Source: Bifidobacterium longum subsp. longum JCM 1217
GTDB taxonomy: Bacteria > Actinomycetota > Actinomycetes > Actinomycetales > Bifidobacteriaceae
Direction of reading: 5' to 3'
Length of the DNA stretch: 32,000 nucleotides
NCBI RefSeq assembly: GCF_000196555.1
Contig: NC_015067.1
Coordinates: 2,160,001 to 2,192,000, forward strand
Shown: positions 1,060-31,037 of the stretch, piece by piece
How the letters are laid out: the number at the start of each line of letters is the position of its first letter
Position numbering within the stretch: the stretch's first letter is position 1
Translations under genes and position numbers: made by a program
Notes under the pieces: model-generated
Seen by the model: only the letters and a program-made list of their open reading frames with translations
The model's database searches: none
What the model was told of the DNA's origin: nothing

Positions 1060-2031
1060 CTAGGATTTCGCGCTCACCACCGGTGAGGCACCACTCCGGG
1101 CTTCGCGCTCATTTTCAAATGAGGCACCTCGGGCATTCTTCTGTTTCAAGATAATCTTGTCGTCGGACACATCCTTAAGGTGCTTGCCGTACGGGCTCTT
1201 GCCGTACTTCTCGGCGGCCTCAAGCAGCTGCTCGCGGGTAATCCAGCCGTTCTCATAGGCGATTTCCTCGGCCACGGCGATGGGCAGGCCCTGCGCGCGC
1301 TGCACGGTGCGCACGAACTCGCCCGCCTCGTACAGGGAGTCCATCGTGCCCGTGTCCAGCCACGCGTAGCCGCGGCCCAACGTGCGCACGTTCAACGCGC
1401 CCGCCTCCAGGTACATCTTGTTCAGGTCGGTGATCTCCAACTCGCCTCGCGCGGACGGTTTCACCTGCTTGGCGAACTCCACCACGCGCTCGTCATAAAA
1501 GTACAGGCCCGTCACCGCGTAGTTCGACTTCGGACGCTTGGGTTTCTCCTCGATGGACACGGCCTTCTTGTCCGCGTCGAACTCGACCACGCCGTAACGC
1601 TCCGGATCGTCCACGTAGTAGCCGAACACGGACGCGCCCTCACCGTTCTCCGCCTTCGCCTTCGCCTTGCGCAACGTGGCGCCCAGACCGTTGCCGTAGA
1701 AGATGTTGTCGCCCAGCACGAGCGCACACGGCTCACCCGCGATGAACTCCTCGCCCAACAGGAACGCCTGCGCCAGACCATCCGGGGACGGCTGCACCAC
1801 ATAGGAGAATTTCACGCCATACTGGCTGCCGTCGCCAAGCAGTCGCTCGAAGTTCGGCAGGTCCTTCGGCGTGGAGATGATAAGGATGTCACGGATGCCG
1901 GCCATCATGAGCACGCTCAGCGGATAGTAGATCATCGGCTTGTCGTACACCGGAAGCAGCTGCTTCGATGTCACCGTCGTCAACGGATACAGCCTCGTAC
2001 CCGAGCCACCGGCGAGAATGATACCTTTCAT
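1060..2031 (-). CDS. rmlA: Glucose-1-phosphate thymidylyltransferase
   Basis: The 323-aa product starts [35 protein letters not shown], a canonical RmlA N-terminus. It is co-oriented with rmlCD and rmlB. Confidence 0.93.
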
Positions 2032-2187: not shown

Positions 2188-3642
2188 CTACTTGCCGAGT
2201 TCCTTGTTCACGTATGCTTCGAGGGTTTCCTCCCAGTCGGCGGGCGTGTAGCCGGCGGCCTTGATCTTGGACAGGTCGAGCGCGGAATGCTCGGGACGCG
2301 GGCTGACCGGCGCCTTCGCGTTCGCGAAGTACTCGGCCGTGCTGATCGGCTTGACCTTCTCCCCGTTGCCGTTCGTCAGTTCGAACACGCGGGACGCGAT
2401 CTGCGCCCAGTTCCTCACCGCGCCGGAACCGGTCAAGTTGTACGTACCGTACGGGGCATGCGAGTCCAGCAGGTGGAAGATCGCCTCGGCCATGTCCTTC
2501 GTGAACGTGAGGCGCCCGTACTGGTCGTCCACCACCGTCACCTGCTCCAGCTGGTCGTCCGGGTTCGCGACACGGTCCGACAGCATCATCATCGTCTTCA
2601 CGAAGTTGCGGCCCTCGCCGATCACCCAGCTGGAACGCAGGATGTAGTGCTCCGGCGCGTTCGCCACCGCGATGTCGCCCGCAGCCTTCGTCTGCCCGTA
2701 CACGCCCAACGGCGCGAACGCCTCATCCTCCGAATGCAGGTCCGCGGTGCCGTCGAACACGTAGTCGGAGCTCACATGCACCAGCGTGATGTGATGGTCC
2801 TTCGCGACCCTCGCGAGCAGGGCCGGGCCCTGCGCGTTCGCCTTCCACGCCACCGGACGGCCCTCCGCGGTCTCCGCCCTGTCCACGGCCGTGTACGCGC
2901 CCGCGTTGATGATCGTGCCGTACAGGCTCCAATCGTACTTGTCGTACGCGGTCGGATCGGAGAAGTCGAACTCGTCGATGTCCGTGTACTCGAAACCACG
3001 CAGACCATGCGCCTCCGCGTACGCGCGGACCGCACGGCCCAACTGGCCGTTGCAGCCCGTCACCAGCGTGCGCTTCGGCTCCATCGGCTTCGCATCCCTG
3101 AGCATCGGATGATGCAGGTCCGCCTCGGAGCGTTCGGACTCCTCCAACGGGATCGGCCACTCGATGCCCAGCTCCGGGTCCGCGAGGTTCACGAACGTGT
3201 ACGTCTTCTTCTGTTCCAGCGACCAATGCGCGTTCACCAGATACGTGTACACGGTCCCGTCCTGCAAGGCCTGGAAGCTGTTGCCCACGCCGCGAGGCAC
3301 GTAGATCGCCTTGGACGGGTCCAAACGGGTCGTGTACACCTGGCCGAAGCTCTCGCCCGGGCGCAGGTCCACCCACGCGCCGAAGATCTCACCCGCCGCG
3401 ATCGAGATGTACTTGTCCCACGGCTCCGCATGGATGCCGCGCGTCACGCCCTTCGTCGCGTTGAAGCTGATGTTGTTCTGCACCGGACCGAAATCCGGCA
3501 GGCCCAACGCGGTCATCTTCGCCCGCTGCCAGTTCTCCTTGAACCAGCCACGATTGTCACCATGTACCGGCAGGTCGAACACCAACAGGCCCGGGATGTT
3601 CGTCTCCTCGACCTTCAAGTCCTTCTCGAATTCGAACGACAT
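2188..3642 (-). CDS. rmlCD: Bifunctional dTDP-4-dehydrorhamnose 3,5-epimerase / dTDP-4-dehydrorhamnose reductase (RmlC-RmlD fusion)
   Basis: The 484-aa product has an N-terminal cupin epimerase part (PGLLVFDLPVHGDNRGWFKENW..RGIHAEPWDKY). The C-terminal part is a Rossmann reductase (TLVTGCNGQLG..HVSSDYVFDG..YGQTKAAG). Confidence 0.9.
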   Translation of the reverse strand: MSFEFEKDLKVEETNIPGLLVFDLPVHGDNRGWFKENWQRAKMTALGLPDFGPVQNNISFNATKGVTRGIHAEPWDKYISIAAGEIFGAWVDLRPGESFGQVYTTRLDPSKAIYVPRGVGNSFQALQDGTVYTYLVNAHWSLEQKKTYTFVNLADPELGIEWPIPLEESERSEADLHHPMLRDAKPMEPKRTLVTGCNGQLGRAVRAYAEAHGLRGFEYTDIDEFDFSDPTAYDKYDWSLYGTIINAGAYTAVDRAETAEGRPVAWKANAQGPALLARVAKDHHITLVHVSSDYVFDGTADLHSEDEAFAPLGVYGQTKAAGDIAVANAPEHYILRSSWVIGEGRNFVKTMMMLSDRVANPDDQLEQVTVVDDQYGRLTFTKDMAEAIFHLLDSHAPYGTYNLTGSGAVRNWAQIASRVFELTNGNGEKVKPISTAEYFANAKAPVSPRPEHSALDLSKIKAAGYTPADWEETLEAYVNKELGK

Positions 3643-3649
3643 ACGTTCC

Positions 3650-4576
3650 CTACTTTCTATCTTCAGAATCGTTTTGCCACGTTGCTATGCAGCGTGCAGG
3701 ATTAAGCGTTTTCAAGGCCTCCCCTTTATCGGGGAAAGCCCAATTCGGGCATTCGGGGCCCAAGGCATCGAGGATGAAGAACATGTCGTATCTCAGTTTC
3801 GCGAACTCGACCCGCAGAAGGTTCTCATCATGACCGATACGGTTGCGGATGGTACGAACCGATTTGAGGCGGTCCACCAGTTCCTTGCGCAGCCTGTCCT
3901 CAAACGGGTCGCCGTCGTTGCCGGGAAGCCTTCCCTTCGGCATACGACGCAGTTCCGACGCCCATGCATCCGCGATGTTGGGGAACGCGCCCATGAGGAC
4001 ATGGGCGAGTTCAGGGTCCTTGCCGGAACGGGACAACATGCCATCCCACGTGCCCAACGTCAATTGGGAGAACACGTCGTCGCGGGTGATCGCATCCCCG
4101 TGCCTTGGATGCGTCTGGTCGGAACGCCAATGCCGTTGCTTGCGCAATGCCGTGTTCCGGGCCTCCGCGATATAGTCGCGCTCGGGGCTGTTGATCAAAG
4201 CCCGTATCCTCCCGATCGGATCGCTTTTGCCGGCTTCAAGCCAGTCCGGGATGCCCGTTATCTGCTGCCCGGACACCCATTCGCAAAGCCGGTAATCGAT
4301 TGCATTTCTGACGAATATCTCGATATAGCCGATATAACCGATTGTGATGGCGGATGCCTCCACGTTCCAGCGGTACAGCCTCACCGCCAGATCAACCAGC
4401 CGTTCCCGATCGACCGTATCCACATGCCGTCTTGCATAATCGAGATACACCTGGAACCGCGCGTCAGCAAGAAAACGACTCGCCATCACGGCATTGTCCG
4501 CTTGCTTTTTCACATTCATATGTGTATCTTTCATAGTGCTATAGGGGCCACACCTTCGAGGTGTGGCCATTTTCAT
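3650..4576 (-). CDS. Abi_2 (AbiD/AbiF-like) HEPN-type putative abortive-infection protein inserted in the rml operon
   Basis: The 308-aa ORF contains YRWNVEASAITIGYIGYIEIFVRNAI, DDVFSQLTLGTWDGML and a C-terminal LKSVRTIRNRIGHDENLL (Rx4H motif). A more likely start is ATG 4534 or 4519, because 4546-4568 forms a strong hairpin. Its stop lies 7 nt before the rmlCD ATG. The family call is from memory of the Abi_2 pattern and has not been searched. Confidence 0.6.
   Translation of the reverse strand: MKMATPRRCGPYSTMKDTHMNVKKQADNAVMASRFLADARFQVYLDYARRHVDTVDRERLVDLAVRLYRWNVEASAITIGYIGYIEIFVRNAIDYRLCEWVSGQQITGIPDWLEAGKSDPIGRIRALINSPERDYIAEARNTALRKQRHWRSDQTHPRHGDAITRDDVFSQLTLGTWDGMLSRSGKDPELAHVLMGAFPNIADAWASELRRMPKGRLPGNDGDPFEDRLRKELVDRLKSVRTIRNRIGHDENLLRVEFAKLRYDMFFILDALGPECPNWAFPDKGEALKTLNPARCIATWQNDSEDRK
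4546..4568 (-). other. Intercistronic stem-loop between rmlB and the Abi-like ORF
   Basis: GGCCACACC TTCGA GGTGTGGCC forms a 9-bp perfect GC-rich stem with a 5-nt loop, 16 nt downstream of the rmlB stop. Confidence 0.5.
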
Positions 4577-4583
4577 ATTCCGC

Positions 4584-5654
<1,071 letters not shown>

Positions 5655-6542
5655 CTAGATAGAAGTGCAACGCCTGTCTACGGTTGGAAGTGTTCAGGTT
5701 CATAACCGAAGAGAAAGCGTTGCACTCATCATGAAAGCTTATTCCCACCTGTCGGCACAGGAATATGTCCGGATCGACGAGTTGAGGAACCGTGACGGGC
5801 TCGGGGTCCGTCAAATCGCCCTGAGGATCGGCCACGACAAGTCCGCCGTCAGCCACGAATGCCTCTACCAGTGGATCCACGTGAAACCGCAGAAGGCATT
5901 GGACCTCAGGCGGTACCTGCCGCGGGGCAAACGACATCGCACGCGGGCGAAGGGACGCCGGTCGAAGGGGCCGCGCATCGGGATGCGCGTGCCGATCACC
6001 GAACGTCCCAAACGCGTGGGCTCGCGCCGCGAGTTCGGCCATTATGAGTCCGACACGGTCGTCGGCGCGTCCCCGTCGAGACGGTGCGTCGACACGCAGG
6101 TCGAACGCAAGAGCCGCCGCCTGTTCGCCAGGTTCATCGACGACAAGAGCGCGCTGGCCACCGCGCGCCGAATACGACATCCACAAGGACATCCCCGCGC
6201 CGGCGAGGATCGACCGGACCTGGGACAACGGCACCGAATCCTCCTGCCACCTGCTCGTGGACGAGGCGCTGGGCATGCTCACCTATCTCGCGGACCCGTA
6301 CTCCTCCCACCAGCGCGGGTCGAACGAGAACCGCAACGGGCGCATCCCCGCTACCTGCCCAAGAGGACCGGCTTCGACGACCTCACGGACGCGGACCTGC
6401 AGGCCATCGTCCAGGAGATCAACGACACCCCCATGAAGGTCCTGGCTGAGAAACGCCCAACGAGGTTTGGTACCGCGAACTCGGCAAGGTAATGTCGAGG
6501 GCAAGCCACCCAAGGACGAGCGTTGCACTTACAAATTGAATC
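5655..6542 (+). mobile_element. Decayed IS30-family element with recognisable terminal inverted repeats
   Basis: The left end is CTAGATAGAAGTGCAACGCC (5655-5674). The right end is GCGTTGCACTTACAAATTGAATC (6520-6542). Together they share an inverted AAGTGCAACGC core that also appears at the end of the first IS30 fragment (1007-1023). Confidence 0.7.
5731..6492 (+). pseudogene. IS30-family transposase with an internal deletion and at least two frameshifts
   Basis: The HTH start MKAYSHLSAQEYVRIDELRNRDGLGVRQIALRIGHDKSAVSHE jumps directly to LYQWI...GHYESDTVVG..VERKSRRLF. The frame then shifts (about 6160) to RIDRTWDNGTESS..YLADPYSSHQRGSNENRNG. It shifts back (about 6345) to RYLPKRTGFDDLTDADLQAIVQEINDTPMKVL. 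Confidence 0.7.
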
Positions 6543-6572: not shown

Positions 6573-8969
6573 TTACCGCTTCGCTCCAGTGACTGAGTCA
6601 AAGTAGTACAACCTTCCATTGATGTATTGAGTACCATACAGCATCTTCCCATCGGCACCGTAGTACACCGTCTTACCGCCATTCGAGTTCAGACGCTGCC
6701 AGCCGGACTTCCGCGCACCAGTCACCGGATCCAAGTAGTACCAAGCGCCATCAATATGCTGCTCGCCATACAGCATAACGCCCAATCCCTGCTGGTAATA
6801 CACCCACTTGCCGCCGCTCGATGACAAATACTTCCAGCCGTATACCACTTGCCCATTCGACGAAGACGAATCGTCATCAAAGAAATACCAATGTCCTCTC
6901 ACCTGCGACTCACCATGCACCATTGCTCCGTTCGCACCATAGTAAACCCATTTGCCGCCGCTAGGCTCGTTCGTGATCTTTGTGCGTCGCCAACCCGATA
7001 AACGCGCCCCCGTCATCGAATCCAAGAAATACTGCTTCCCGTCGATAGTTTTCTCGCCGTACTGCATCTTCCCATCGGCACCGTAGTACACCGTCTTACC
7101 GCCATTCGAGTTCAGACGCTGCCAGCCCTGCTTGCGAGCGCCGGTCACCGGATTCAGGTAATACCAAGCACCATTAATCTTCTGCTCGCCATACAGCATG
7201 TACGGCGCATAATACACGTTCCTGTCATCCGGCAAAACGACCCAGCCGGTCATCCTCGCTCCGCTATCGGGATTCAGGTAATACCATTTACCAGCAATGT
7301 TTTGTTCGCCGTACAGCATTGCACCGTCCGAACCATAGTAGACCCACTTATTCGCACCGACTTTGAGATATACCCAACCCGTTGCGCGCGCGCCTGTACC
7401 CGGATTCAGGTAATACCATTTACCGCCAATTTGCTGCTCTCCGTACAGCATATGCCCATCGGAAAGATCGTAATACACCCACTTGCCGCCGCTCGACGAA
7501 AGCCGCTGCCAACCGGTAGCCTTTTTGCCGGTTGCAGTATCGACGTAGTACCACTTTCCGTCCTTTTCCACCTCAACATATTGCGTTACAGGGGTCTTAT
7601 TACCGAACGCGTTCATATCCACGCGGCCGGAAATGCCGCTGATGGAGCCGCCGCTCGTGTACTGCCAGCCGCGGTCGTTGGTGGGGAACGCGGTGTACTG
7701 CATGGTGGAGCCATACTGCGCCACCCAGCGGGTCTTGCCGTGGATGTTGCCGCTGTTGAGCGCACTGTTCAGGTAGCTTGTGTACGAGTAGACGCTCAGA
7801 TTGTTGTAACCGGCCGCCTGCAGTTTGCCGTACCAGGAGTTGACGATGCCGTCGTACACGCTCGGACTCGTCGGGCTCCTATGCCCCGTGTACGTCCAGT
7901 TCTCTAGATCGTAGAACACCGGGTAGCTCAGGTCGCCCGGGTTCACGCCCGCCTGGCGCAGCAGGTTCACCACGTCCGCGCCCTCGGACGCACCGTCGGC
8001 CGCACTTTCCGCATACGAGAAGACGTACACGCCGAACGGGATGCCGAGACGCTTGCATTCGCTGATGTTGCGCTTCGCCTGCGCGTCGAAACCATTGCCC
8101 CAGCCGTAGCTCAGACGGATGATCGCGCCCTCGACGCCCGCGTTCTTCACCGCCTGCCAGTCAATCGTGTTCTGCCACACGGACACGTCGATCACGCCCT
8201 TCGCCTGCTGGGCGAACAGGTTGTTGCGCGCGTCGAAGAACGCCTGCGTACCGTTGTACGTGCCCCAGTGCGCACCGTACTCATTGTTCTGCAACGCGGC
8301 GAGCTTCACCGACGCGTTGGTCGCGCGCGTCTTCGAGGAGACCGCGTTCACGTCACCGCCGTTCGCAGCGACCTTCTCCTTCACATCCGCGGCACTCACC
8401 GGAATGAACGACTCACCATCCGTCTTCGCCAACGGATCGGGCTGCTTGCTCTCCGTGCCCACGATCTTCGGATCGGTGACCGTCTCGCCCGTCTTGATGT
8501 CCTTCAACTCGCCTTCCGGCGTAGCCGCATATTGCTCGGACACCACCGTCGCGTCATCGGAGATCTCGGCGGACACCTTGTCCGGCAGCTCGGCATCCGG
8601 ATTGTCCGGCATCGCGTCGGCAGCCGTCTCATCGGCGACCATCACACCGTTCGCGACCGGACGCGTCGCGGAAGTCGCGGACCGCGCCTGCGAGCGCGCG
8701 TCGGATGAGGTTCCGTCCGAGGCGGCCGCGGAGGCCGTCACGGAGGCCGCGGACCGGACGCCGGACGCGTCCGCGTCGGCGTTCACATCCGCGAGCGCGC
8801 TGGCCGGAGTGACGCACACCGCGCCCAACATCGCCATCGCCGCGACGGACGCCATCGCCGCAGTCACACCGCGCACCGCGCCGGATGCCGTTGCACGCGC
8901 ACGCAACGCACGCAGCATGCCCGTCGCACCCTTCGCATCCGCGCCGTCGAACCGCTTCTTTTCCACCAT
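6573..8969 (-). CDS. Secreted GH25-family muramidase (lysozyme) with C-terminal cell-wall-binding repeats
   Basis: Start 8969 is preferred because AAGGAG lies 6 nt upstream; the ORF track start is 9065. A signal peptide ends ..PASALA. After an Ala/Ser/Asp-rich linker comes the GH25-like core GVIDVSVWQNTIDWQAVKNAGVEGAIIRLSYGWG..GIPFGVYVFSY. About 340 aa of GW/YY repeats follow. Confidence 0.8.
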   Translation of the reverse strand: MVEKKRFDGADAKGATGMLRALRARATASGAVRGVTAAMASVAAMAMLGAVCVTPASALADVNADADASGVRSAASVTASAAASDGTSSDARSQARSATSATRPVANGVMVADETAADAMPDNPDAELPDKVSAEISDDATVVSEQYAATPEGELKDIKTGETVTDPKIVGTESKQPDPLAKTDGESFIPVSAADVKEKVAANGGDVNAVSSKTRATNASVKLAALQNNEYGAHWGTYNGTQAFFDARNNLFAQQAKGVIDVSVWQNTIDWQAVKNAGVEGAIIRLSYGWGNGFDAQAKRNISECKRLGIPFGVYVFSYAESAADGASEGADVVNLLRQAGVNPGDLSYPVFYDLENWTYTGHRSPTSPSVYDGIVNSWYGKLQAAGYNNLSVYSYTSYLNSALNSGNIHGKTRWVAQYGSTMQYTAFPTNDRGWQYTSGGSISGISGRVDMNAFGNKTPVTQYVEVEKDGKWYYVDTATGKKATGWQRLSSSGGKWVYYDLSDGHMLYGEQQIGGKWYYLNPGTGARATGWVYLKVGANKWVYYGSDGAMLYGEQNIAGKWYYLNPDSGARMTGWVVLPDDRNVYYAPYMLYGEQKINGAWYYLNPVTGARKQGWQRLNSNGGKTVYYGADGKMQYGEKTIDGKQYFLDSMTGARLSGWRRTKITNEPSGGKWVYYGANGAMVHGESQVRGHWYFFDDDSSSSNGQVVYGWKYLSSSGGKWVYYQQGLGVMLYGEQHIDGAWYYLDPVTGARKSGWQRLNSNGGKTVYYGADGKMLYGTQYINGRLYYFDSVTGAKR
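6576..7575 (-). repeat. 15 tandem ~20-23-aa GW..(W/T)VYY..G.MLYGE / G.WYYL...TGAR..GW wall-binding repeats (CW_binding_1-like), including a 64-bp perfect DNA duplication
   Basis: I counted the repeats in the translation. The DNA stretch 6641-6704 is identical to 7064-7127. Confidence 0.75.
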
Positions 8970-9148
8970 GCGTAACTCCTTGACGCACCCATCCCGCGCA
9001 CCCGCACACCGCCACGCGTTCCGATGGTCGACCGGACTCTCACACGCGGGAACAGGCAGGCGCAAACAGGCGCAATCACAACGTTTTCAACCGTGCTCCA
9101 GTCTAATGAGCAAGGCGGATAAGACAGACGGAGCGAAGCGGGCAAAAT

Positions 9149-9187: not shown

Positions 9188-10906
9188 CTATCTTTTGAGA
9201 AGATACTTCCTGTTTCTACTGCGCGGCGGCGCAGTGGCGAGAACGAGTCCACGTTTAACGAGCCGGCTCAACGCCTTACGCGTCGTAGGAAGGCCCCTCC
9301 CCGAGCGACGGCCGATTTCGTGGACATCAAGTGGCTTATCCGCCGACAATACGGACAGTATCGCGGATTCCGATGCCGTAAGACCCTTACGGCCCCCACT
9401 CGGCTCCTCACCATCGACCTTCTCCGCTAGTGCGTACCGATCAGGGCCGATTTCATCGGCCAGCCTCGCTTGGACCAATCTATGCAAAATCACCCTGATG
9501 TCGTCGGAATCCAGATACAGCGCGACATGCAACTGCGGAACCGTCATATCGCCATGCCTCTTCAACAAGAGCAACGCCATACGTTCATGACGAGTCAAGG
9601 GGACGCCCACATGATCAAGCCAGTCACGGTTCTCCTGCTGCTCCACGCCGTAGCGTCCAAGAACGACCGTGAACCGATCGGGAGTTGCGCGGAACACAGG
9701 TTCCCCCAGTGCACGGGATTTCATCTCGCGAATCACCAGAGGGATGCCGGAGCCACCGCCTTCCACGGTCACATCATTCGCATCGTCATACGGTATCTGA
9801 TGAAGCAGCTGCATCAACGTCGCATTGCGGCAGCATGACACGCCGCTGCCGATCGTGGCCAGCGTGACCCCACCCCATAATCCGCCAGGATTCGACACCT
9901 CCACCCGATCGGGGTAGATGTCCACGGTCACGGATTCTCCGAGGAATTGCGCATCATATTCCCTGTGAACCACGGCATTGGCGACGACCTCGCGCAGCAC
10001 CTCCTTTGGAATCTCGCTATCGGTACGGGCTCCGACCCCCACGACGAACGTGGGAGCCCGCAGGTTTTTGGCGATGGCCTCCACCGCCTGTTCGATTGCC
10101 TCCGGCATATTGCCGTCGCATTGCACACGATCCACGAAACGCGGACCCTCAACCGCCGATTTCTCGACACCCGGATGTGCGACGACGTCAATGATCAGCT
10201 TGGGATAGTACTGCTGCGGGTACTGTCCGGCGGCCAACAGTCCCGCAAGACGCACCTCTCCAACCTTGTTCACCATATTCAATCTGGTCATGCGCTCAAG
10301 ACGAGTATCAGTCCCGCGCAACGCCTTGGAATTACGATGCTCGGCAAGCACCCTGTCCACCGCCTCGGCATTCAGATCGGAGACGTCGGCTTCAGGGACA
10401 ACCATACGATCCGCGGAACTGGGCGTCAGGGCATGGGTCATTTCGAACACTTCGGTTGGCGACAATCTCAAATCCTTGTCGTCCATACGGCGGTACCCAC
10501 CGGTTTGCGGCCCTCTCGCCGTAAGATAGCAGGGTTTGTGCTGAATGCCGTTTTCATGGATGTCGATGACCAGGAACGACAAGCCGTTCTGCTCGCATCG
10601 GGAAACGTCATACTCCGGAGGATTCGTCAACCGTGCTCCTTGCGGATTGCCATCTCCCATACCATCCATGAACTGCGATGCAATATGGTTGGCGTCGAAT
10701 CCCGGAACAGGCGAGAAATCCCCGTCCTCGCTGATTCCCAACAACAGCACGCCGCCCTTGGTGTTGGCGAACGCGCTCACACTCTCCCACACGCTGGTGC
10801 CGATGGTCCGCGCACAGGATTTCGCCTCGAAACGGGCGTCATCGTTGCCTTGGACACGTAGATGTTCCAGCACCTCGGCGATATCGTCATTCGTCCACAT
10901 CATCAT
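9188..10906 (-). CDS. AlbA_2 (Schlafen-like, 'divergent AAA') / HATPase_c_4 / winged-helix putative DNA-binding protein
   Basis: The N-terminus RFEAKSCARTIGTSVWESVSAFANTKGGVLLLGISEDGDFSPVPGF matches the AlbA_2 pattern. The centre, REVVANAVVHREYD..VTVDIYPDRVEVSNPGGLWGG, matches the RecG-C-terminal-like HATPase_c_4 pattern. Two C-terminal wHTH-like segments follow. The SD AAGGGGG abuts the first of three ATGs, so the real start is probably 10900. Confidence 0.7.
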   Translation of the reverse strand: MMMWTNDDIAEVLEHLRVQGNDDARFEAKSCARTIGTSVWESVSAFANTKGGVLLLGISEDGDFSPVPGFDANHIASQFMDGMGDGNPQGARLTNPPEYDVSRCEQNGLSFLVIDIHENGIQHKPCYLTARGPQTGGYRRMDDKDLRLSPTEVFEMTHALTPSSADRMVVPEADVSDLNAEAVDRVLAEHRNSKALRGTDTRLERMTRLNMVNKVGEVRLAGLLAAGQYPQQYYPKLIIDVVAHPGVEKSAVEGPRFVDRVQCDGNMPEAIEQAVEAIAKNLRAPTFVVGVGARTDSEIPKEVLREVVANAVVHREYDAQFLGESVTVDIYPDRVEVSNPGGLWGGVTLATIGSGVSCCRNATLMQLLHQIPYDDANDVTVEGGGSGIPLVIREMKSRALGEPVFRATPDRFTVVLGRYGVEQQENRDWLDHVGVPLTRHERMALLLLKRHGDMTVPQLHVALYLDSDDIRVILHRLVQARLADEIGPDRYALAEKVDGEEPSGGRKGLTASESAILSVLSADKPLDVHEIGRRSGRGLPTTRKALSRLVKRGLVLATAPPRSRNRKYLLKR

Positions 10907-26211: not shown

Positions 26212-27282
26212 ATGAGATCATTTGACTACATCGAATCAGGTAAGACGTTGCTCACCCCGCACACCACGAGTTTGCTTGCCGCTATTCACGAGGCAAAAGG
26301 GCGTCAAAGCATACAGACAACGATCAGACCGGATATATTGGGGACGCTGGTTGCCGTCGCGCGCATCCAAAGCACAGATGCCTCAAACCGCATCGAAGGT
26401 ATTTCTACCAGCGATAGCAGGCTCAACGATCTCGTCTCGGAGAAAGTCACACCGCGCAATCGCAATGAAGAAGAAATTGCCGGTTACCGTGACGCGCTAT
26501 CGGTTATTCACGAAAGCCACGACTATATTCCGATTACCCCGAACGTCATTCTTCAACTGCACCGCGACCTCTTCCGACACACACCACTGACCTTTGCGGG
26601 GCATTTCAAGGACAGTGACAACGTCATCATCGAACGAGATGCACACGGGACCAGCACCGTGCGATTCGCCCCACCGTCCGCACTTGTCACACCGGAACTG
26701 ATCGAACGCGCGTGTTCCGCCTACACGCAAGCAATCCGAGATGGACATACCGATCCATTGCTTGCCATCGCCATGTTCATTCTCGATTTCACCTGCATAC
26801 ATCCGTTCAATGACGGCAACGGCCGCATGAGTCGGCTACTCACGCTCCTGATGTTGTACCGCAATGGCTATATGGTCGGCAAATACATCAGTATCGAACA
26901 CCTTATCGAGCAAAGTAAACGCACTTATTATGAGGCGATGACCGCAAGCACCCAAGGATGGGACGACAACGCCAATGATTATGCGCCATTCACGAACTAC
27001 CTGCTTGGCATCATACTGTCCGCGTGCAAGGAATTCGACGAACGCATCAATCTCGCGGCAGGCGGCAGAGCGCAGGGAGCACCGCGAGTAGCCACCAAGG
27101 GAACGCGGATTGAAGCACTGCTTGATCAATCCCTAGTGCCACTCTCCAAGGCCGATATTCTCGCTCGCATGCCCGATACCAGCACCACCACCATTGAGCG
27201 CACGCTGAAATCACTGTTGGACTCCGGTACGATCATCAAAATCGGTGCTGGTCGCAGCACCCGCTATGTGAAACGCCGCTAA
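26212..27282 (+). CDS. Fic-family protein (class II, N-terminal inhibitory helix) with C-terminal winged-helix domain
   Basis: The canonical Fic motif HPFNDGNGRMSR is present. The N-terminal SNRIEG matches the [ST]xxxE[GN] inhibitory motif. The C-terminal segment is LSKADILARMPDTSTTTIERTLKSLLDSGTIIKIGAGRSTRY. Confidence 0.9.
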   Translation: MRSFDYIESGKTLLTPHTTSLLAAIHEAKGRQSIQTTIRPDILGTLVAVARIQSTDASNRIEGISTSDSRLNDLVSEKVTPRNRNEEEIAGYRDALSVIHESHDYIPITPNVILQLHRDLFRHTPLTFAGHFKDSDNVIIERDAHGTSTVRFAPPSALVTPELIERACSAYTQAIRDGHTDPLLAIAMFILDFTCIHPFNDGNGRMSRLLTLLMLYRNGYMVGKYISIEHLIEQSKRTYYEAMTASTQGWDDNANDYAPFTNYLLGIILSACKEFDERINLAAGGRAQGAPRVATKGTRIEALLDQSLVPLSKADILARMPDTSTTTIERTLKSLLDSGTIIKIGAGRSTRYVKRR

Positions 27283-27307: not shown

Positions 27308-29116
27308 TCACTCTTCCGGCGCTCCGCTGGCCACGCGAATCATCGCGTACTGGGACTCGTAGAGGCGGTAGTACGCGCCCTTGGCGGCGAGCAGCTGCGC
27401 GTGCGAGCCGTGCTCGACGATCTGGCCGTGATCGATGTAGAAGATCTCGTCCGCGTTCTCGATCGTCGACAGGCGGTGCGCGATGATGAAGCTCGTGCGC
27501 CCCTTGAGCAGATGCTGCAGGCCGGCCTGCAGCGCCTCCTCGGTGCGCGTGTCGATGTTGCTCGTCGCCTCGTCCAGGATCAGGATACGCGGGTCGGCGA
27601 GCAGCACGCGCGCGAAGGCGATGAGCTGGCGCTGGCCGGCCGACAGGGTCGATCCGCGCTCCTCCACCACCGTGTCGTACCCGTCGGGCAGTTCCATGAT
27701 GAACTCGTGCGCGTGCACGGCCTTCGCCGCCGCCTCGATTTCCTCGTCGGTGGCGTCGAGCTTGCCGTAGCGGATGTTCTCGCGCACGTTGCCGGAGAAG
27801 ATGAAGGTGTCCTGCAGCATCACGCCCATCTGCCGGCGCAGCGATGCGAGCGTCACGTCGCGCACGTCGTAGCCGTCGATCGTCACCGAGCCCTCGGACA
27901 CGTCGTAGAAGCGCGACAGCAGGTTGATGATCGTCGTCTTGCCGGCGCCCGTCGGGCCGACCAGCGCGATTGTGCGCCCCGGTTCGACGTGGAAGTCCAC
28001 GAGGTTGAGGATGTTGCGGCCGTCCTTCTCGTAGCGGAACACCACGTCGTTGAAGTCGACGCGCCCGCGGATCTGCGGCAGGTCCGCCGCGTCGGGCTTG
28101 TTGCGGATCTCCGGCGTGACGTCGAGCGTCTCGAAGATGCGCTCGAGGTACGCCGAGCAGGTGATGAGCTGGTTGTAGAAGTTGCCGATGTTGATCACCG
28201 GATTCCAGAAGTTGTTCGCGTAGCCGACGAACGCGATGAGCACGCCGGTGGTCACGTTCACGCCCCCGAAGCCCATCACGCCGACGAAGTAGATGAACGA
28301 GATGGTCATCACGGAGATGGTCTGCACGCCCGGCCACATGAGGAACTGGATGTGCACGGCGTGCATCCACGCGGAACGCACCTCGCCCTGCTGTTCCTGG
28401 AAGGTCCTGAACTGGGCCTGCTCCTGTGCGAAGGTCTGCGTGGTCTTCACGCCGGCGATCGACTCGTGGATGTAGGCGTTCAGGTTGCTCTGCTTGTTGG
28501 AGAGCTTCTGGAAGGCGCGCCGCTGGAAGATCTGCAGCACGCGCACCCAGATGATGAGCACCGGGAACAGGATCAGGCTCCACAGGGCCAGCTGCCAGTC
28601 GATCACGAACATCACGATCAGCGTGATCACGAAGGTGAACACGTCGGAGATCACGTTGATCAGACCGGAGCTCAGCGTGTCCGAAAGCGTGTTCACATAG
28701 TTGACCACGCGGATCAGGATCTTGCCGTGCGGGCGCGAATCGAAGTAGCTGAAGGGCAGCGTCTGGATATGCGTGAAGATATCGCGGCGCATGTCCTTGA
28801 GCATGAGCTGGCCGACGCGCGTGATCGCCACCGTGCGGTAGCGCAGCCCGAACTCGTACAGCACGATCAGCGCGGCGAGGATCACGGCGAGGATGCCGAG
28901 CTTGCCGAGGTCCTTGTTCGGGATCGCCTCGTCGATCATGATCTTGGTCAGGTACGGCACGGCGACGACGATGCAGCTCATCGAGATGACGACGACGAGA
29001 ATGCGCGCCACCTGTGCCATATACGGTTTGAGATATTTGCCGACGCGCAGGATGTCCCGGAAGTTGATCTGCTCCTCGAGTTCCTCATCCTCGCGGTATG
29101 TATTGCGTTGTGCCAT
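27308..29116 (-). CDS. ABC exporter half-transporter (TMD-NBD), consensus-site subunit of a heterodimer
   Basis: The 602-aa product has six N-terminal TM segments. Its NBD motifs are Walker A GPTGAGKTT, Walker B ILILDEATS, H-loop IAHR and a non-canonical signature LSAGQ. Confidence 0.9.
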   Translation of the reverse strand: MAQRNTYREDEELEEQINFRDILRVGKYLKPYMAQVARILVVVISMSCIVVAVPYLTKIMIDEAIPNKDLGKLGILAVILAALIVLYEFGLRYRTVAITRVGQLMLKDMRRDIFTHIQTLPFSYFDSRPHGKILIRVVNYVNTLSDTLSSGLINVISDVFTFVITLIVMFVIDWQLALWSLILFPVLIIWVRVLQIFQRRAFQKLSNKQSNLNAYIHESIAGVKTTQTFAQEQAQFRTFQEQQGEVRSAWMHAVHIQFLMWPGVQTISVMTISFIYFVGVMGFGGVNVTTGVLIAFVGYANNFWNPVINIGNFYNQLITCSAYLERIFETLDVTPEIRNKPDAADLPQIRGRVDFNDVVFRYEKDGRNILNLVDFHVEPGRTIALVGPTGAGKTTIINLLSRFYDVSEGSVTIDGYDVRDVTLASLRRQMGVMLQDTFIFSGNVRENIRYGKLDATDEEIEAAAKAVHAHEFIMELPDGYDTVVEERGSTLSAGQRQLIAFARVLLADPRILILDEATSNIDTRTEEALQAGLQHLLKGRTSFIIAHRLSTIENADEIFYIDHGQIVEHGSHAQLLAAKGAYYRLYESQYAMIRVASGAPEE

Positions 29117-29126
29117 AAGTCCTCTT

Positions 29127-31037
29127 CTAAAAACCTTGTGCGACGCCGGACTGGAGTCCGAGCTGCTTGTGGTAGATGTCCCAGTAGCGGCCGTGTGCGG
29201 CCACGAGTTCGGCGTGGGTGCCGCGTTCGACGATACGTCCGTGCTCGAGCACCAGAATCAGGTCGGAATCCTTGACCGACGAGATGCGGTGGGCGATGGC
29301 GACGATGGTCTTGCCGCCGTCCATCTCCTTGAGGTGCTTCTGGATCTCCGCCTCGGTCTCCATATCGACGGCCGAGGTCGTATCGTCCATAATCAGGATC
29401 GACGGATTGTCCGCGAGCGCGCGGGCCAGCGACAGGCGCTGCTTCTGCCCGCCGGACAGGCCCACGCCGCGTTCGCCCACGACGGTGTCATAACCCTGTG
29501 GCATCGACCTGATGAAATTGTCCGCGCCGGCGATCTGGGCCATTTTCTGGATATATCGGTCGTCGCTATCACCGCTGGCACCAAAACCGATGTTGCCGCC
29601 GATGGTGTCGGAGAACAGGAAGGTATCCTGCGCCACGATGCACACCTGCGAGCGCAAGGTGGCCAGCGGCCAGTCGCGTGCGTCGATGCCGTCGATGAGC
29701 ACATGGCCAACGGTCGGGTCGTAGAAGCGGGAGATGAGGCTGACGAGCGTGGACTTGCCCGCGCCGGTTTCGCCGAGGATGCCGAGCTTGGAGCCGGCGG
29801 GCACGGTGAAGTCGAGGTCCTTGAGGATCGGGGTCTCCGGGTCGTCCGGGAAGGCGAAGCTGACGTGGTCGAAGCGGATGTCGCCCTTGATGTGCAGCGG
29901 GCAGGACTTGCGTTCGGTGGACTGCTGGGCACCGGATGTTCCGGAAGCCACGGGCGCTCCGGTAGCCCCGGTAGCCTCATCATCGTGCTTGACTTGCTCG
30001 ACGATCGTGACCGCCTGCTTGACGGTTTCGACCGCGTCGGGCTTCTCCACGATGCGCGGCTGTTCGGTGAGCAGCTTGCGGATTTTGATGCAGCTGGCGT
30101 TGAATCGCTGCCAGTCGTTGATCAGCCAGCCGGACTGGCGCACCGGGCCGTCGATCATCCACAGGAAGGAGTTGAAACTCACCAGATTGCCGAGGGTCAT
30201 GTAGCCCTTGATGACCAGAAAGCCGCCGAGGCCGAGGGTGATGAGCTGCAGCGAGAAGCCGAGGCCGTCCAGCCACGGCATGTACTTGCGCGAGTTGTAG
30301 GCCAAGGCCATGTTGCACTGCATGTAATCGTCGTTGTGCTCGTCGAACTTTTCGGTCTCGTACGGTTCGCGCACGAATGCCTTGACCACACGGTTGCCCT
30401 CGATGTTCTCTTCGACCATGGAGTTGAGGGAGGCCAGCGAGTTGCGGATGGCGAAGAACAGCGGGTGGGCGTGCGTGGACAGGCCGCGCGTGAGCACAAA
30501 AATGAACGGCGTGACGCAGGCCAGGACGAGCGCGAGTCGCCAATCGATGGCGAACATCACGCACAGGGCGCCCACGAACATGACCACGCAGTCGGCAATC
30601 TGATAGCTCACCCAACTCAGGCAGTGGCGGATCGCGTCGGTGTCGGAGGTCAGGCGGCTCATGATGTCGCCGGTGCGTGTGTGGTTGAAATACGTGAAGT
30701 CGAGCTCGTGCAGCTTCTCGTATTCGTCGGAGACGAGGCGGTAGACCGAGTTCTGGCCGAAACGCTCCATCCACATCTGGTAGCCGTATCGCGCGCCCAC
30801 GCGGATGATGGTCATGAGGATCATCAGTCCACACAGACGTGGCAGTTCGTCGGCATGTCCGCCGACGATGACGCGGTCCACGATGATACCGGACAGAATC
30901 GGAATGGTCAGGGCCATCGTGTTATTTGCGATGAACAGTAGAAGCGCGCCTACCACGCGGGGCAGGTCTGGTTTGCAGTATGGCAGCACCCATTTGAGAT
31001 TGCTTGCGCTGGTATTGATTCCCGGATCGACGTACAT
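29127..31037 (-). CDS. ABC exporter half-transporter (TMD-NBD), degenerate-site subunit of a heterodimer
   Basis: The 636-aa product has Walker A GETGAGKST and signature LSGGQ. Walker B reads ILIMDDTTS, with Asp in place of the catalytic Glu. Only 10 nt separate it from the downstream partner. Confidence 0.9.
   Translation of the reverse strand: MYVDPGINTSASNLKWVLPYCKPDLPRVVGALLLFIANNTMALTIPILSGIIVDRVIVGGHADELPRLCGLMILMTIIRVGARYGYQMWMERFGQNSVYRLVSDEYEKLHELDFTYFNHTRTGDIMSRLTSDTDAIRHCLSWVSYQIADCVVMFVGALCVMFAIDWRLALVLACVTPFIFVLTRGLSTHAHPLFFAIRNSLASLNSMVEENIEGNRVVKAFVREPYETEKFDEHNDDYMQCNMALAYNSRKYMPWLDGLGFSLQLITLGLGGFLVIKGYMTLGNLVSFNSFLWMIDGPVRQSGWLINDWQRFNASCIKIRKLLTEQPRIVEKPDAVETVKQAVTIVEQVKHDDEATGATGAPVASGTSGAQQSTERKSCPLHIKGDIRFDHVSFAFPDDPETPILKDLDFTVPAGSKLGILGETGAGKSTLVSLISRFYDPTVGHVLIDGIDARDWPLATLRSQVCIVAQDTFLFSDTIGGNIGFGASGDSDDRYIQKMAQIAGADNFIRSMPQGYDTVVGERGVGLSGGQKQRLSLARALADNPSILIMDDTTSAVDMETEAEIQKHLKEMDGGKTIVAIAHRISSVKDSDLILVLEHGRIVERGTHAELVAAHGRYWDIYHKQLGLQSGVAQGF

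Follow-up and report, generated by a model that had tools for sequence, protein, structure and literature searches.

What kind of gene has been fitted between two rhamnose biosynthesis genes of Bifidobacterium longum subsp. longum JCM 1217, and what accompanies it there? The gene in question, BLLJ_1803, is encoded on the reverse strand of a 32,000-nucleotide stretch of DNA (contig NC_015067.1, positions 2,160,001–2,192,000), here called the window, in whose numbering all positions are given. A sequence-only reading of the window had taken it for a putative abortive-infection gene with a HEPN-type motif, horizontally inserted into the rhamnose operon between rmlB and rmlCD. The analysis reported here leads, with a probability of roughly 60%, to a fuller reading: BLLJ_1803 would be a diverged Abi_2 HEPN effector, a latent ribonuclease (RNase) with its own cis-encoded leader in the rmlB–rmlCD junction, transcribed by read-through and carried as a swappable cassette.

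The gene occupies the junction between rmlB (4584–5618; dTDP-glucose 4,6-dehydratase) and the rmlCD fusion (2188–3642; dTDP-4-dehydrorhamnose 3,5-epimerase/reductase), all three on the same strand, as had been read from the sequence. The upstream flank is identified by Pfam matches to GDP_Man_Dehyd (5e-76) and Epimerase (6e-63) and by the name of the exactly matching B. longum sequence, the downstream flank by matches to dTDP_sugar_isom (2e-37) and RmlD_sub_bind (7e-64). The maximal open reading frame (ORF) between them (3650–4576) does comprise 308 codons and contains the three peptides quoted as family landmarks; as a coding sequence (CDS), however, a form of 289 aa beginning at M20 (3650–4519) is likelier. 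Translation most likely starts at ATG 4519, not at ATG 4576, because homologues begin at the former position, behind an AAGGAUAGCAyAUG-type site; because residues 1–26 are disordered in the AlphaFold2 model; because codons 1–19 coincide with a conserved hairpin (4546–4568), an overlap absent from the earlier account; because the upstream stretch of B. imperatoris (locus L012) contains in-frame stops; and because RefSeq/GenBank use the 289-aa form (BAJ67468.1). This lengthens the spacer between rmlB and the gene from 7 nt to about 64 nt, and the 57 nt separating the two ATG codons are the conserved hairpin element. At the position of the ribosome-binding site (RBS), the aligned junctions of four loci (L012, L104, L010 and L127) have AAGGAU(A/G)GC(A/G)(C/U)AUG, versus GAAAGA here (4527–4532), which by sequence reading is a weak RBS-like site 7 nt before ATG 4519. 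At the 3′ end, the TAG codon (3650–3652) is followed by ggaacgt (3643–3649) and the rmlCD ATG (3640–3642), just as claimed. An RBS-like purine run of rmlCD overlaps the 3′ end of the Abi CDS, and similarly tight spacing to rmlCD (3–30 nt) is seen in the aligned junctions of other Abi-bearing loci.

On family-level profiles and fold, BLLJ_1803 is assigned to the Abi_2/HEPN family, as a member of a diverged branch in actinobacteria, because of the Abi_2 and PADLOC matches at family level, the fold match to the AbiF structure 8vz6 and an invariant RNRxxH motif. This placement is solid for the family, so that the earlier claim of Abi_2/HEPN membership stands at that level, though the query taken alone falls below the Pfam cutoff. 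The homologue search yielded about 36 clusters; 3092 proteins are matched by a profile built on the Bifidobacterium clade, and 738 of these matches are at E≤1e-10. Pfam Abi_2 (PF07751) is matched by 14 of the 22 close homologues (best 2.4e-6) and by 21 of 37 sampled distant profile relatives (best 8e-10), among which P0041 scores above the cutoff with 26.7 bits; a few distant relatives match HEPN_RiboL-PSP or HEPN_Swt1, and precomputed PF07751 matches exist for several homologues. In PADLOC the query itself matches PD-T4-5 (1.4e-6) and AbiD (1e-4), with homologues reaching 2e-11 on PD-T4-5. The PD-T4-5 match (PDLC04038, 25.8 bits) covers the model partially, at positions 37–202 of 309, and PADLOC has no curated threshold for this system. 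Only a weak “abortive infection resistance” match (0.015, 29 residues) was obtained in PHROGs. Relatives on plasmids of Corynebacterium and Rhodococcus carry the annotations “Abi family protein” and “Swt1 family HEPN.” No similarity to sugar-nucleotide or glycan enzymes was found in Pfam, NCBIfam, PDB or fold searches, in agreement with the earlier statement that the product is not a sugar-nucleotide enzyme; a PDB sequence search with the query alone gave no match.

The AlphaFold2 model is confident and all-helical, with a predicted local distance difference test (pLDDT) of 85 and a predicted template modeling score (pTM) of 0.80. Its top and sole meaningful Foldseek match in the PDB is the PbAbiF dimer with its non-coding RNA (ncRNA; 8vz6_A, probability 1.00), the next matches having probabilities of at most 0.14; the viral fold library BFVD contained no match to the model. 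The Rx4H motif pointed out in the sequence-only reading, R244-N-R-I-G-H249 in 308-aa numbering (codons at 3830–3847), is of the HEPN catalytic type and is invariant both in an alignment of 22 sequences (A1) and in one of 37 distant sequences (A2). Its R-x4-H spacing is the same as that of R202/H207 of AbiFCd from Clostridioides difficile, residues needed for toxicity (PMC12373285). In a PDB profile search the motif is also aligned, at a non-significant E of 0.09, with LRNKVAH, the HEPN motif of Csm6. A second invariant polar cluster is formed by E86, R90 and N91 in A1 (block E86-x3-R90-N91, EIFVRNAID, with codons R90-N91 at 4304–4309) and by E63 and R67 (N68) in A2. Judged from these relationships, the Abi_2 (AbiD/F-like) HEPN proteins, including BLLJ_1803, are probably single-protein toxins or abortive-infection effectors of the RNase type; for BLLJ_1803 itself, RNase activity, toxicity and defence would follow from its family.

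The Abi gene is a real gene under purifying selection, not a chance ORF, as evidenced by the homologue clusters, the pLDDT of the model and a ratio of non-synonymous to synonymous substitution rates (dN/dS) of 0.09–0.12; the value for rmlB is 0.12–0.13. These Abi figures apply within the ~59% allele group: between allele groups dS is saturated and dN/dS is not computable, while dS of the flanking rmlB is about 0.55. The lower GC content noticed earlier in short stretches holds for the whole gene (56.3% in the ORF, against 61.5% in rmlB and 64.5% in rmlCD). The GC content at third codon positions (GC3) is 0.67 in the ORF, 0.88 in rmlB and 0.91 in rmlCD, and in every species GC3 of the Abi gene (0.45–0.70) is much lower than that of the flanks (0.74–0.95).

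A conserved leader element (4530–4580, reverse strand), recognized by the covariance model R1 with 70.4 bits (E 1.4e-11), precedes the gene. On the sense strand it consists of an A-run (4570–4573), a 10-bp stem with a 3-nt loop (4546–4568) and the 3′ flank CCCUAUAGCAC, which extends to about 4536. All Abi-bearing rml loci share this layout between the rmlB stop and the Abi start, that is, AUGAAAAY followed by the 10-bp GC stem with its 3-nt loop and then by CCCUAUAGCAC. In a 12-sequence alignment, 95% of the stem cells are paired on the sense strand, compared with 38–50% when the stem is slid, and three of the ten pairs show double-sided compensatory changes. Read in antisense, pairing is 100%, with four of ten pairs compensatory and two G.U pairs. 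A compensatory pair beyond the three on the sense strand (U-A) is contributed by the B. amazonense hairpin. The fold z-score is −4.05. In 835 kb of rml loci, R1 matches were confined to Abi-bearing junctions and a scar in B. amazonense. Outside rml, the leader lies 23 nt upstream of the ATG of P0038 (locus L133), with additional compensatory changes (R1 24 bits, E 0.004), and an analogous A-rich tract with a strong perfect hairpin is located 50–59 nt upstream of distant relatives in L127, L130, L132 and plasmid pCG4. One distant relative has the blocks GATATAAAAAACGG and AAGGATAGCACATGG in common with B. imperatoris. The element tracks the Abi gene and not rmlB, and the hairpin therefore belongs to the Abi module.

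The possibility that the hairpin is a generic stem-loop following rmlB was considered and rejected: hairpins at Abi-less junctions are unrelated in sequence and unmatched by R1, and the element accompanies the gene outside rml. Four Abi-less loci (L007, L008, L009 and L011) have another conserved stem-loop right after rmlB (GAGGGAGAGAG...CUCUCUCCCUC, then A/UUCAUG), which suggests that the “empty” operon may carry a separate intercistronic RNA element.

A survey of the junction across related genomes, proposed together with the original annotation, revealed patchy occupancy. An rmlCD scan with one genome per species gave 80 loci, and the Abi gene was present at the junction in a minority, namely, within this set, B. 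imperatoris and one metagenome-assembled genome; other look-ups added B. platyrrhinorum, B. goeldii, B. callimiconis and B. longum. In most Bifidobacterium species and in all Collinsella/Coriobacteriia the junction measures 7–175 nt and contains no Abi gene. A metagenome scan with the family alignment provided 40 additional loci, and all of the approximately 45 Bifidobacterium copies with adequate flanking sequence lie between rmlB and rmlCD. The cassette is common to at least eight bifidobacterial lineages, at 50–99% identity.

Two species document other states of the junction. In B. amazonense (L010:356–566) the hairpin, RBS and ATG have been kept and the Abi ORF deleted, leaving a scar; a long perfect inverted repeat (gaagtggcctggttttgttccgtttc...gacggaacaaaaccaggccacttc) follows this scar before rmlCD. 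In B. jacchi the place is taken, on the same strand as the rml genes, by a gene coding for a 570-aa protein with SLFN_AlbA_2 and HATPase_c_4 domains (L015:4150–5862, + strand), which has weak PADLOC matches to pAgo-associated proteins. The rmlB–rmlCD junction thus behaves as a cargo slot, since B. jacchi holds a different gene there. The window itself encodes a 572-aa SLFN_AlbA_2 + HATPase_c_4 + MarR protein (9188–10906, reverse strand) about 4.6 kb from the rml block. Its identification with the B. jacchi junction cargo was rejected, as the two have only their domain architecture in common and no significant similarity by BLASTP.

Outside the rml operon, distant relatives were found in a defence island (AAA_14/DUF4143, GmrSD), beside P-type ATPases and on plasmid pCG4 of C. 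glutamicum; plasmid relatives are common in actinobacteria, adjoining recombinases and insertion sequence (IS) elements. The close relative P0038 (L133:4001–5362, GCA_012932425.1) is located between PAP2 and gltX. At its C-terminus this protein is extended by a further domain of about 170 aa, for which there is no Pfam match on record.

In human-gut contigs, an island of about 1 kb, which covers hairpin and gene together with ~100 nt at the start of rmlCD, is 98–100% identical, while the adjoining parts of rmlB and rmlCD are 78–97% identical; species with 93% identical rmlB hold Abi alleles that are merely 53% identical. The history of the cassette is therefore decoupled from that of its flanks. 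The cassette is old and has been repeatedly lost and exchanged, the exchange presumably occurring by recombination in the conserved rml arms. The horizontal insertion proposed earlier does not hold as a one-off event; what remains of it is the exchange of an old cassette at a recurrent slot, with mosaic flanks and repeated loss. The gene called rmlCD also occurs in two lengths, about 360 aa (L001:8935–10023, L002:8882–9973 and L004:8874–9956) versus 484 aa in the window, and in L001, L087 and L099 the segment from about +1950 to +2500 nt, counted from the start of Abi, cannot be aligned with the window (10–25% identity); the RmlD part seems to have been replaced or truncated in some strains.

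In the preferred reading, the Abi module is composed of the A-run, the 10-bp GC hairpin, a short spacer, the RBS and the ORF, placed at the rmlB–rmlCD junction. It would be transcribed by read-through from the rml promoter, because it lies on the same strand and has neither room nor signal for a promoter of its own. Between rmlB and rmlCD, the window scan detected neither a sigma70-like promoter in sense orientation nor a U-tract terminator for the sense strand. Output of the potentially toxic protein may be held low by the leader hairpin and the weak RBS, and the leader RNA may bind and neutralize the HEPN dimer like AbiFr or RCd22, as in type III toxin-antitoxin systems. Upon phage attack or another trigger, the Rx4H site of the HEPN dimer would cut RNA and arrest the cell. 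The conserved rmlB and rmlCD flanks could serve as homology arms for loss of the cassette, for its replacement, as by the Schlafen-like gene of B. jacchi, and for interspecies transfer. Family membership at the level of profiles and fold, purifying selection, fidelity to the slot, patchy presence, mosaicism and a leader that covaries and is linked to the gene are observed; for RNase activity, toxicity, the RNA-antitoxin role, co-transcription and defence, we infer what relatives and gene arrangement suggest.

A narrower version is offered tentatively, as one that may well not hold. The module would be a promoterless junction cassette of an AbiD/F-like toxin and its RNA that borrows rml transcription, moves via the rmlB and rmlCD arms, and has a leader that would be either an AbiF-type RNA partner of a new class or an element of antisense control, in both cases absent from Rfam. 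Through the borrowed transcription, the potential of the toxin would be tied to the synthesis of rhamnose for the cell wall and exopolysaccharide (EPS), likely a phage-receptor pathway.

Comparison with characterized systems shows both what is shared and what is particular to this module. AbiF, AbiD1, PbAbiF–AbiFr and AbiFCd–RCd22 are type III toxin-antitoxins in which an upstream ncRNA with abiF motifs binds the HEPN protein and blocks its site (PMC13064643; PMC12373285; PMC12737573), and conservation in AbiD/F systems is higher upstream of the gene than within it (PMC13064643; PMC12373285). Like AbiD, AbiD1 and AbiF, the present module has an all-helical HEPN protein of ~250–300 aa with an Rx4H motif and a structured element directly upstream that is more conserved than the protein, and no neighbouring protein antitoxin. 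AbiFCd, too, sits between two genes that are linked in function, those for holin and endolysin (PMC12373285). In contrast to AbiF, known from Bacillota, Bacteroidota and Pseudomonadota, the host here belongs to Actinomycetota and the module is embedded in a biosynthetic operon with no space for its own promoter. PD-T4-5, a single-gene anti-T4 system of E. coli, is the best match among the defence models over ~185 core residues, but scores are low, and organism and context differ. ToxIN and AbiQ also pair an RNase toxin with a cis-encoded structured upstream RNA and function in abortive infection (PMC13064643), as is proposed for this module; the ToxN/AbiQ fold, however, is not HEPN, and their antitoxins consist of tandem repeats with a sense terminator behind them, whereas no repeats are present here. 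Patchy presence at one exact junction, alternative cargo in B. jacchi, low GC and identical alleles in divergent flanks are reminiscent of defence hotspots. This slot differs in being an intercistronic gap within a single-pathway operon, not a space between independent core genes, and the cassette is not accompanied by any integrase or mobile-element gene.

A number of observations weigh against the preferred reading. Against PF07751 the query scores 17.1 bits (E 0.007), with a gathering cutoff of 25.6, and it has no match in NCBIfam. The fold match to 8vz6 is moderate (TM score 0.42–0.44, E 0.065, root-mean-square deviation 7.3 Å), and PDB sequence searches with profiles A1 and A2 gave nothing significant, the same AbiF structure being matched at E 0.31. 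Neither a scan of IMG/VR with the family alignment nor tblastn against INPHARED revealed phage relatives. As to the RNA, no Rfam family reached its gathering score in the window, and the abiF motif (RF03085), which is defining for AbiF, was not detected in 3400–5000 even at E≤10. Three of the nine sampled relatives lack a perfect leader hairpin. RCd22 comprises two motifs and a sense terminator, whereas the leader here is a single hairpin with its U-tract on the opposite strand: it has no U-tract on the sense side and a conserved one in antisense, where at each locus 5–7 of the first 8 nt are U. Two one-sided stem variants, moreover, are A.C in sense and G.U in antisense. The antisense U-tract and these variants favour a role on the opposite strand.

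The rival explanation that takes up this orientation is rather unlikely as a whole, although it survives best. It retains the same Abi_2/HEPN single-gene effector (PD-T4-5-like) and regards the hairpin as an intrinsic terminator opposing the operon, which would end a very short antisense RNA begun over the Abi RBS and start codon, or would shield upstream genes from antisense transcription of the AT-richer cassette. On the forward strand the hairpin is followed by AUUUUCAUAU and has the shape of an intrinsic terminator; because the A-run lies 5′ of the sense stem, the antisense strand reads as a textbook one. The U residues stand directly after the stem at every locus, none such are found on the sense side, and complete antisense pairing includes the two G.U pairs. 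Antisense promoter-like hexamers occur 8–16 nt before the stem in the window and in L003, L004, L107 and L118 (up to 10/12 matches), and the best-matching PADLOC system, PD-T4-5, is listed with a single gene. At that threshold, however, promoter-like sites are absent in L002, L012, L104 and L010, and the window scan gave one site versus 1.1 expected from shuffles. The predicted antisense RNA would be ~35 nt long, little beyond the terminator itself; the conservation of the sense 3′ flank CCCUAUAGCAC is left unexplained; and the informative wobble cases number just two, both from metagenome contigs. Two models of the element are kept, a sense leader RNA (attenuator or antitoxin) and an antisense-facing terminator or short antisense RNA; by sequence and pairing its orientation appears ambiguous.

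Much less probable is a domesticated HEPN RNase or RNA-binding protein in the service of the operon, which would process or stabilize the rmlB–rmlCD–rmlA mRNA at the hairpin or tune rhamnose/EPS output. A fixed position inside the rml operon in ~45 bifidobacterial loci, purifying selection equal to that of the neighbours and the tight spacing to rmlCD are consistent with such a role, as are the unrelated stem-loops following rmlB in Abi-less species, which make the junction a site of RNA structure in any case. Yet most bifidobacteria and all Collinsella run the operon without the Abi gene, B. amazonense has lost it, and B. jacchi fills the slot with an unrelated Schlafen-type gene. Relatives with the same leader are found outside rml, in a defence island, at PAP2/gltX and on plasmids, and atypical GC3 in a mosaic island is typical of accessory cargo. 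A cassette without any anti-phage role, serving purely selfish addiction (toxin-antitoxin) or stabilizing the eps/rml locus, which is prone to recombination, is the least probable explanation: relatives are common on actinobacterial plasmids beside recombinases and IS elements, IS30-type remnants flank the rml block of the window (cf. PMC5412050, Table 1) and B. amazonense lost the toxin-side ORF but kept the leader, the order of loss expected of a toxin-antitoxin pair, whereas long-term purifying selection, deeply diverged alleles and allele exchange resemble the dynamics of defence genes, members of the Abi_2 family have conferred protection from phage when put to experiment (PMC13064643), and addiction and defence roles are not mutually exclusive.

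The preferred reading, a diverged Abi_2 HEPN effector with its own leader, places the module in a larger transcription unit. The genes from rmlB through rmlA have been grouped as a putative operon, eps4 (PMC5412050). Its final gene, rmlA (1060–2031, reverse strand), encodes glucose-1-phosphate thymidylyltransferase (Pfam NTP_transferase, 3e-78), and a terminator-like hairpin at 1027–1046 on the same strand, detected by a consensus scan only, is the probable operon end. Exact-sequence look-up led to BLLJ_1803 of JCM 1217, whose deposited form is a “hypothetical protein” of 289 aa; other entries have 308 aa and bear the names “Abi-like protein” or “Ycg4K.” In the literature that was searched, its counterpart turns up solely as an unnamed “hypothetical gene” in the eps table of B. 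longum 105-A (PMC5412050). In Table 1 of that paper, BL105A_0425, between rmlB and rmlC(D), is listed with 1272 bp versus 870/927 bp here; 1272 bp is also the size given there for the IS30 transposase, possibly pointing to a table error or to a different cargo.

Broken IS30-like transposase remnants lie on both sides of the rml block (5665–6492 and ~78–991, both on the forward strand), one with an HTH_38 match and with overlapping frames containing ...ADPYSS.RG.NENRNG... peptides; in strain 105-A, IS30/integrase genes are located directly upstream of rmlB (PMC5412050, Table 1). Adjoining the eps/rml region is a gene for an 830-aa secreted protein (6573–9065, reverse strand) with a GH25 muramidase domain and many choline-binding-type repeats, a lysin-like cell-wall hydrolase. 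Farther away, a Fic/DOC family protein with a toxin-type domain (26212–27282, forward strand) is encoded beside two ABC exporter genes (27308–29116 and 29127–31037, both on the reverse strand).

The protein call alone is not new, because the label “Abi-like” is already in databases. What appear to be undescribed are the strict intercistronic slot in the rhamnose operon, its occurrence in empty, scarred and alternative-cargo states, the pattern of identical islands in mosaic flanks, and a covarying leader hairpin that is distinct from the abiF motif and common to non-rml and plasmid relatives. A coupling of the module to the synthesis of a phage receptor, the rhamnose glycan, is speculation.

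The phage-defence repertoire and the EPS-locus dynamics of B. longum, a major commensal of the human gut and a probiotic, are poorly characterized. If the module is active, it would represent a toxin or defence gene with expression wired to a surface-glycan operon, and engineering or deletion of rml/eps genes in B. longum could unintentionally disturb it. AbiF–AbiFr ncRNA pairing is considered ancestral to that of Cas13 and its crRNA, and the leader hairpin, if this reading is true, would be its actinobacterial counterpart. An active module would also mean that operon-internal junctions may serve as slots for defence cargo, overlooked by hotspot searches directed at the intergenic regions between core genes.

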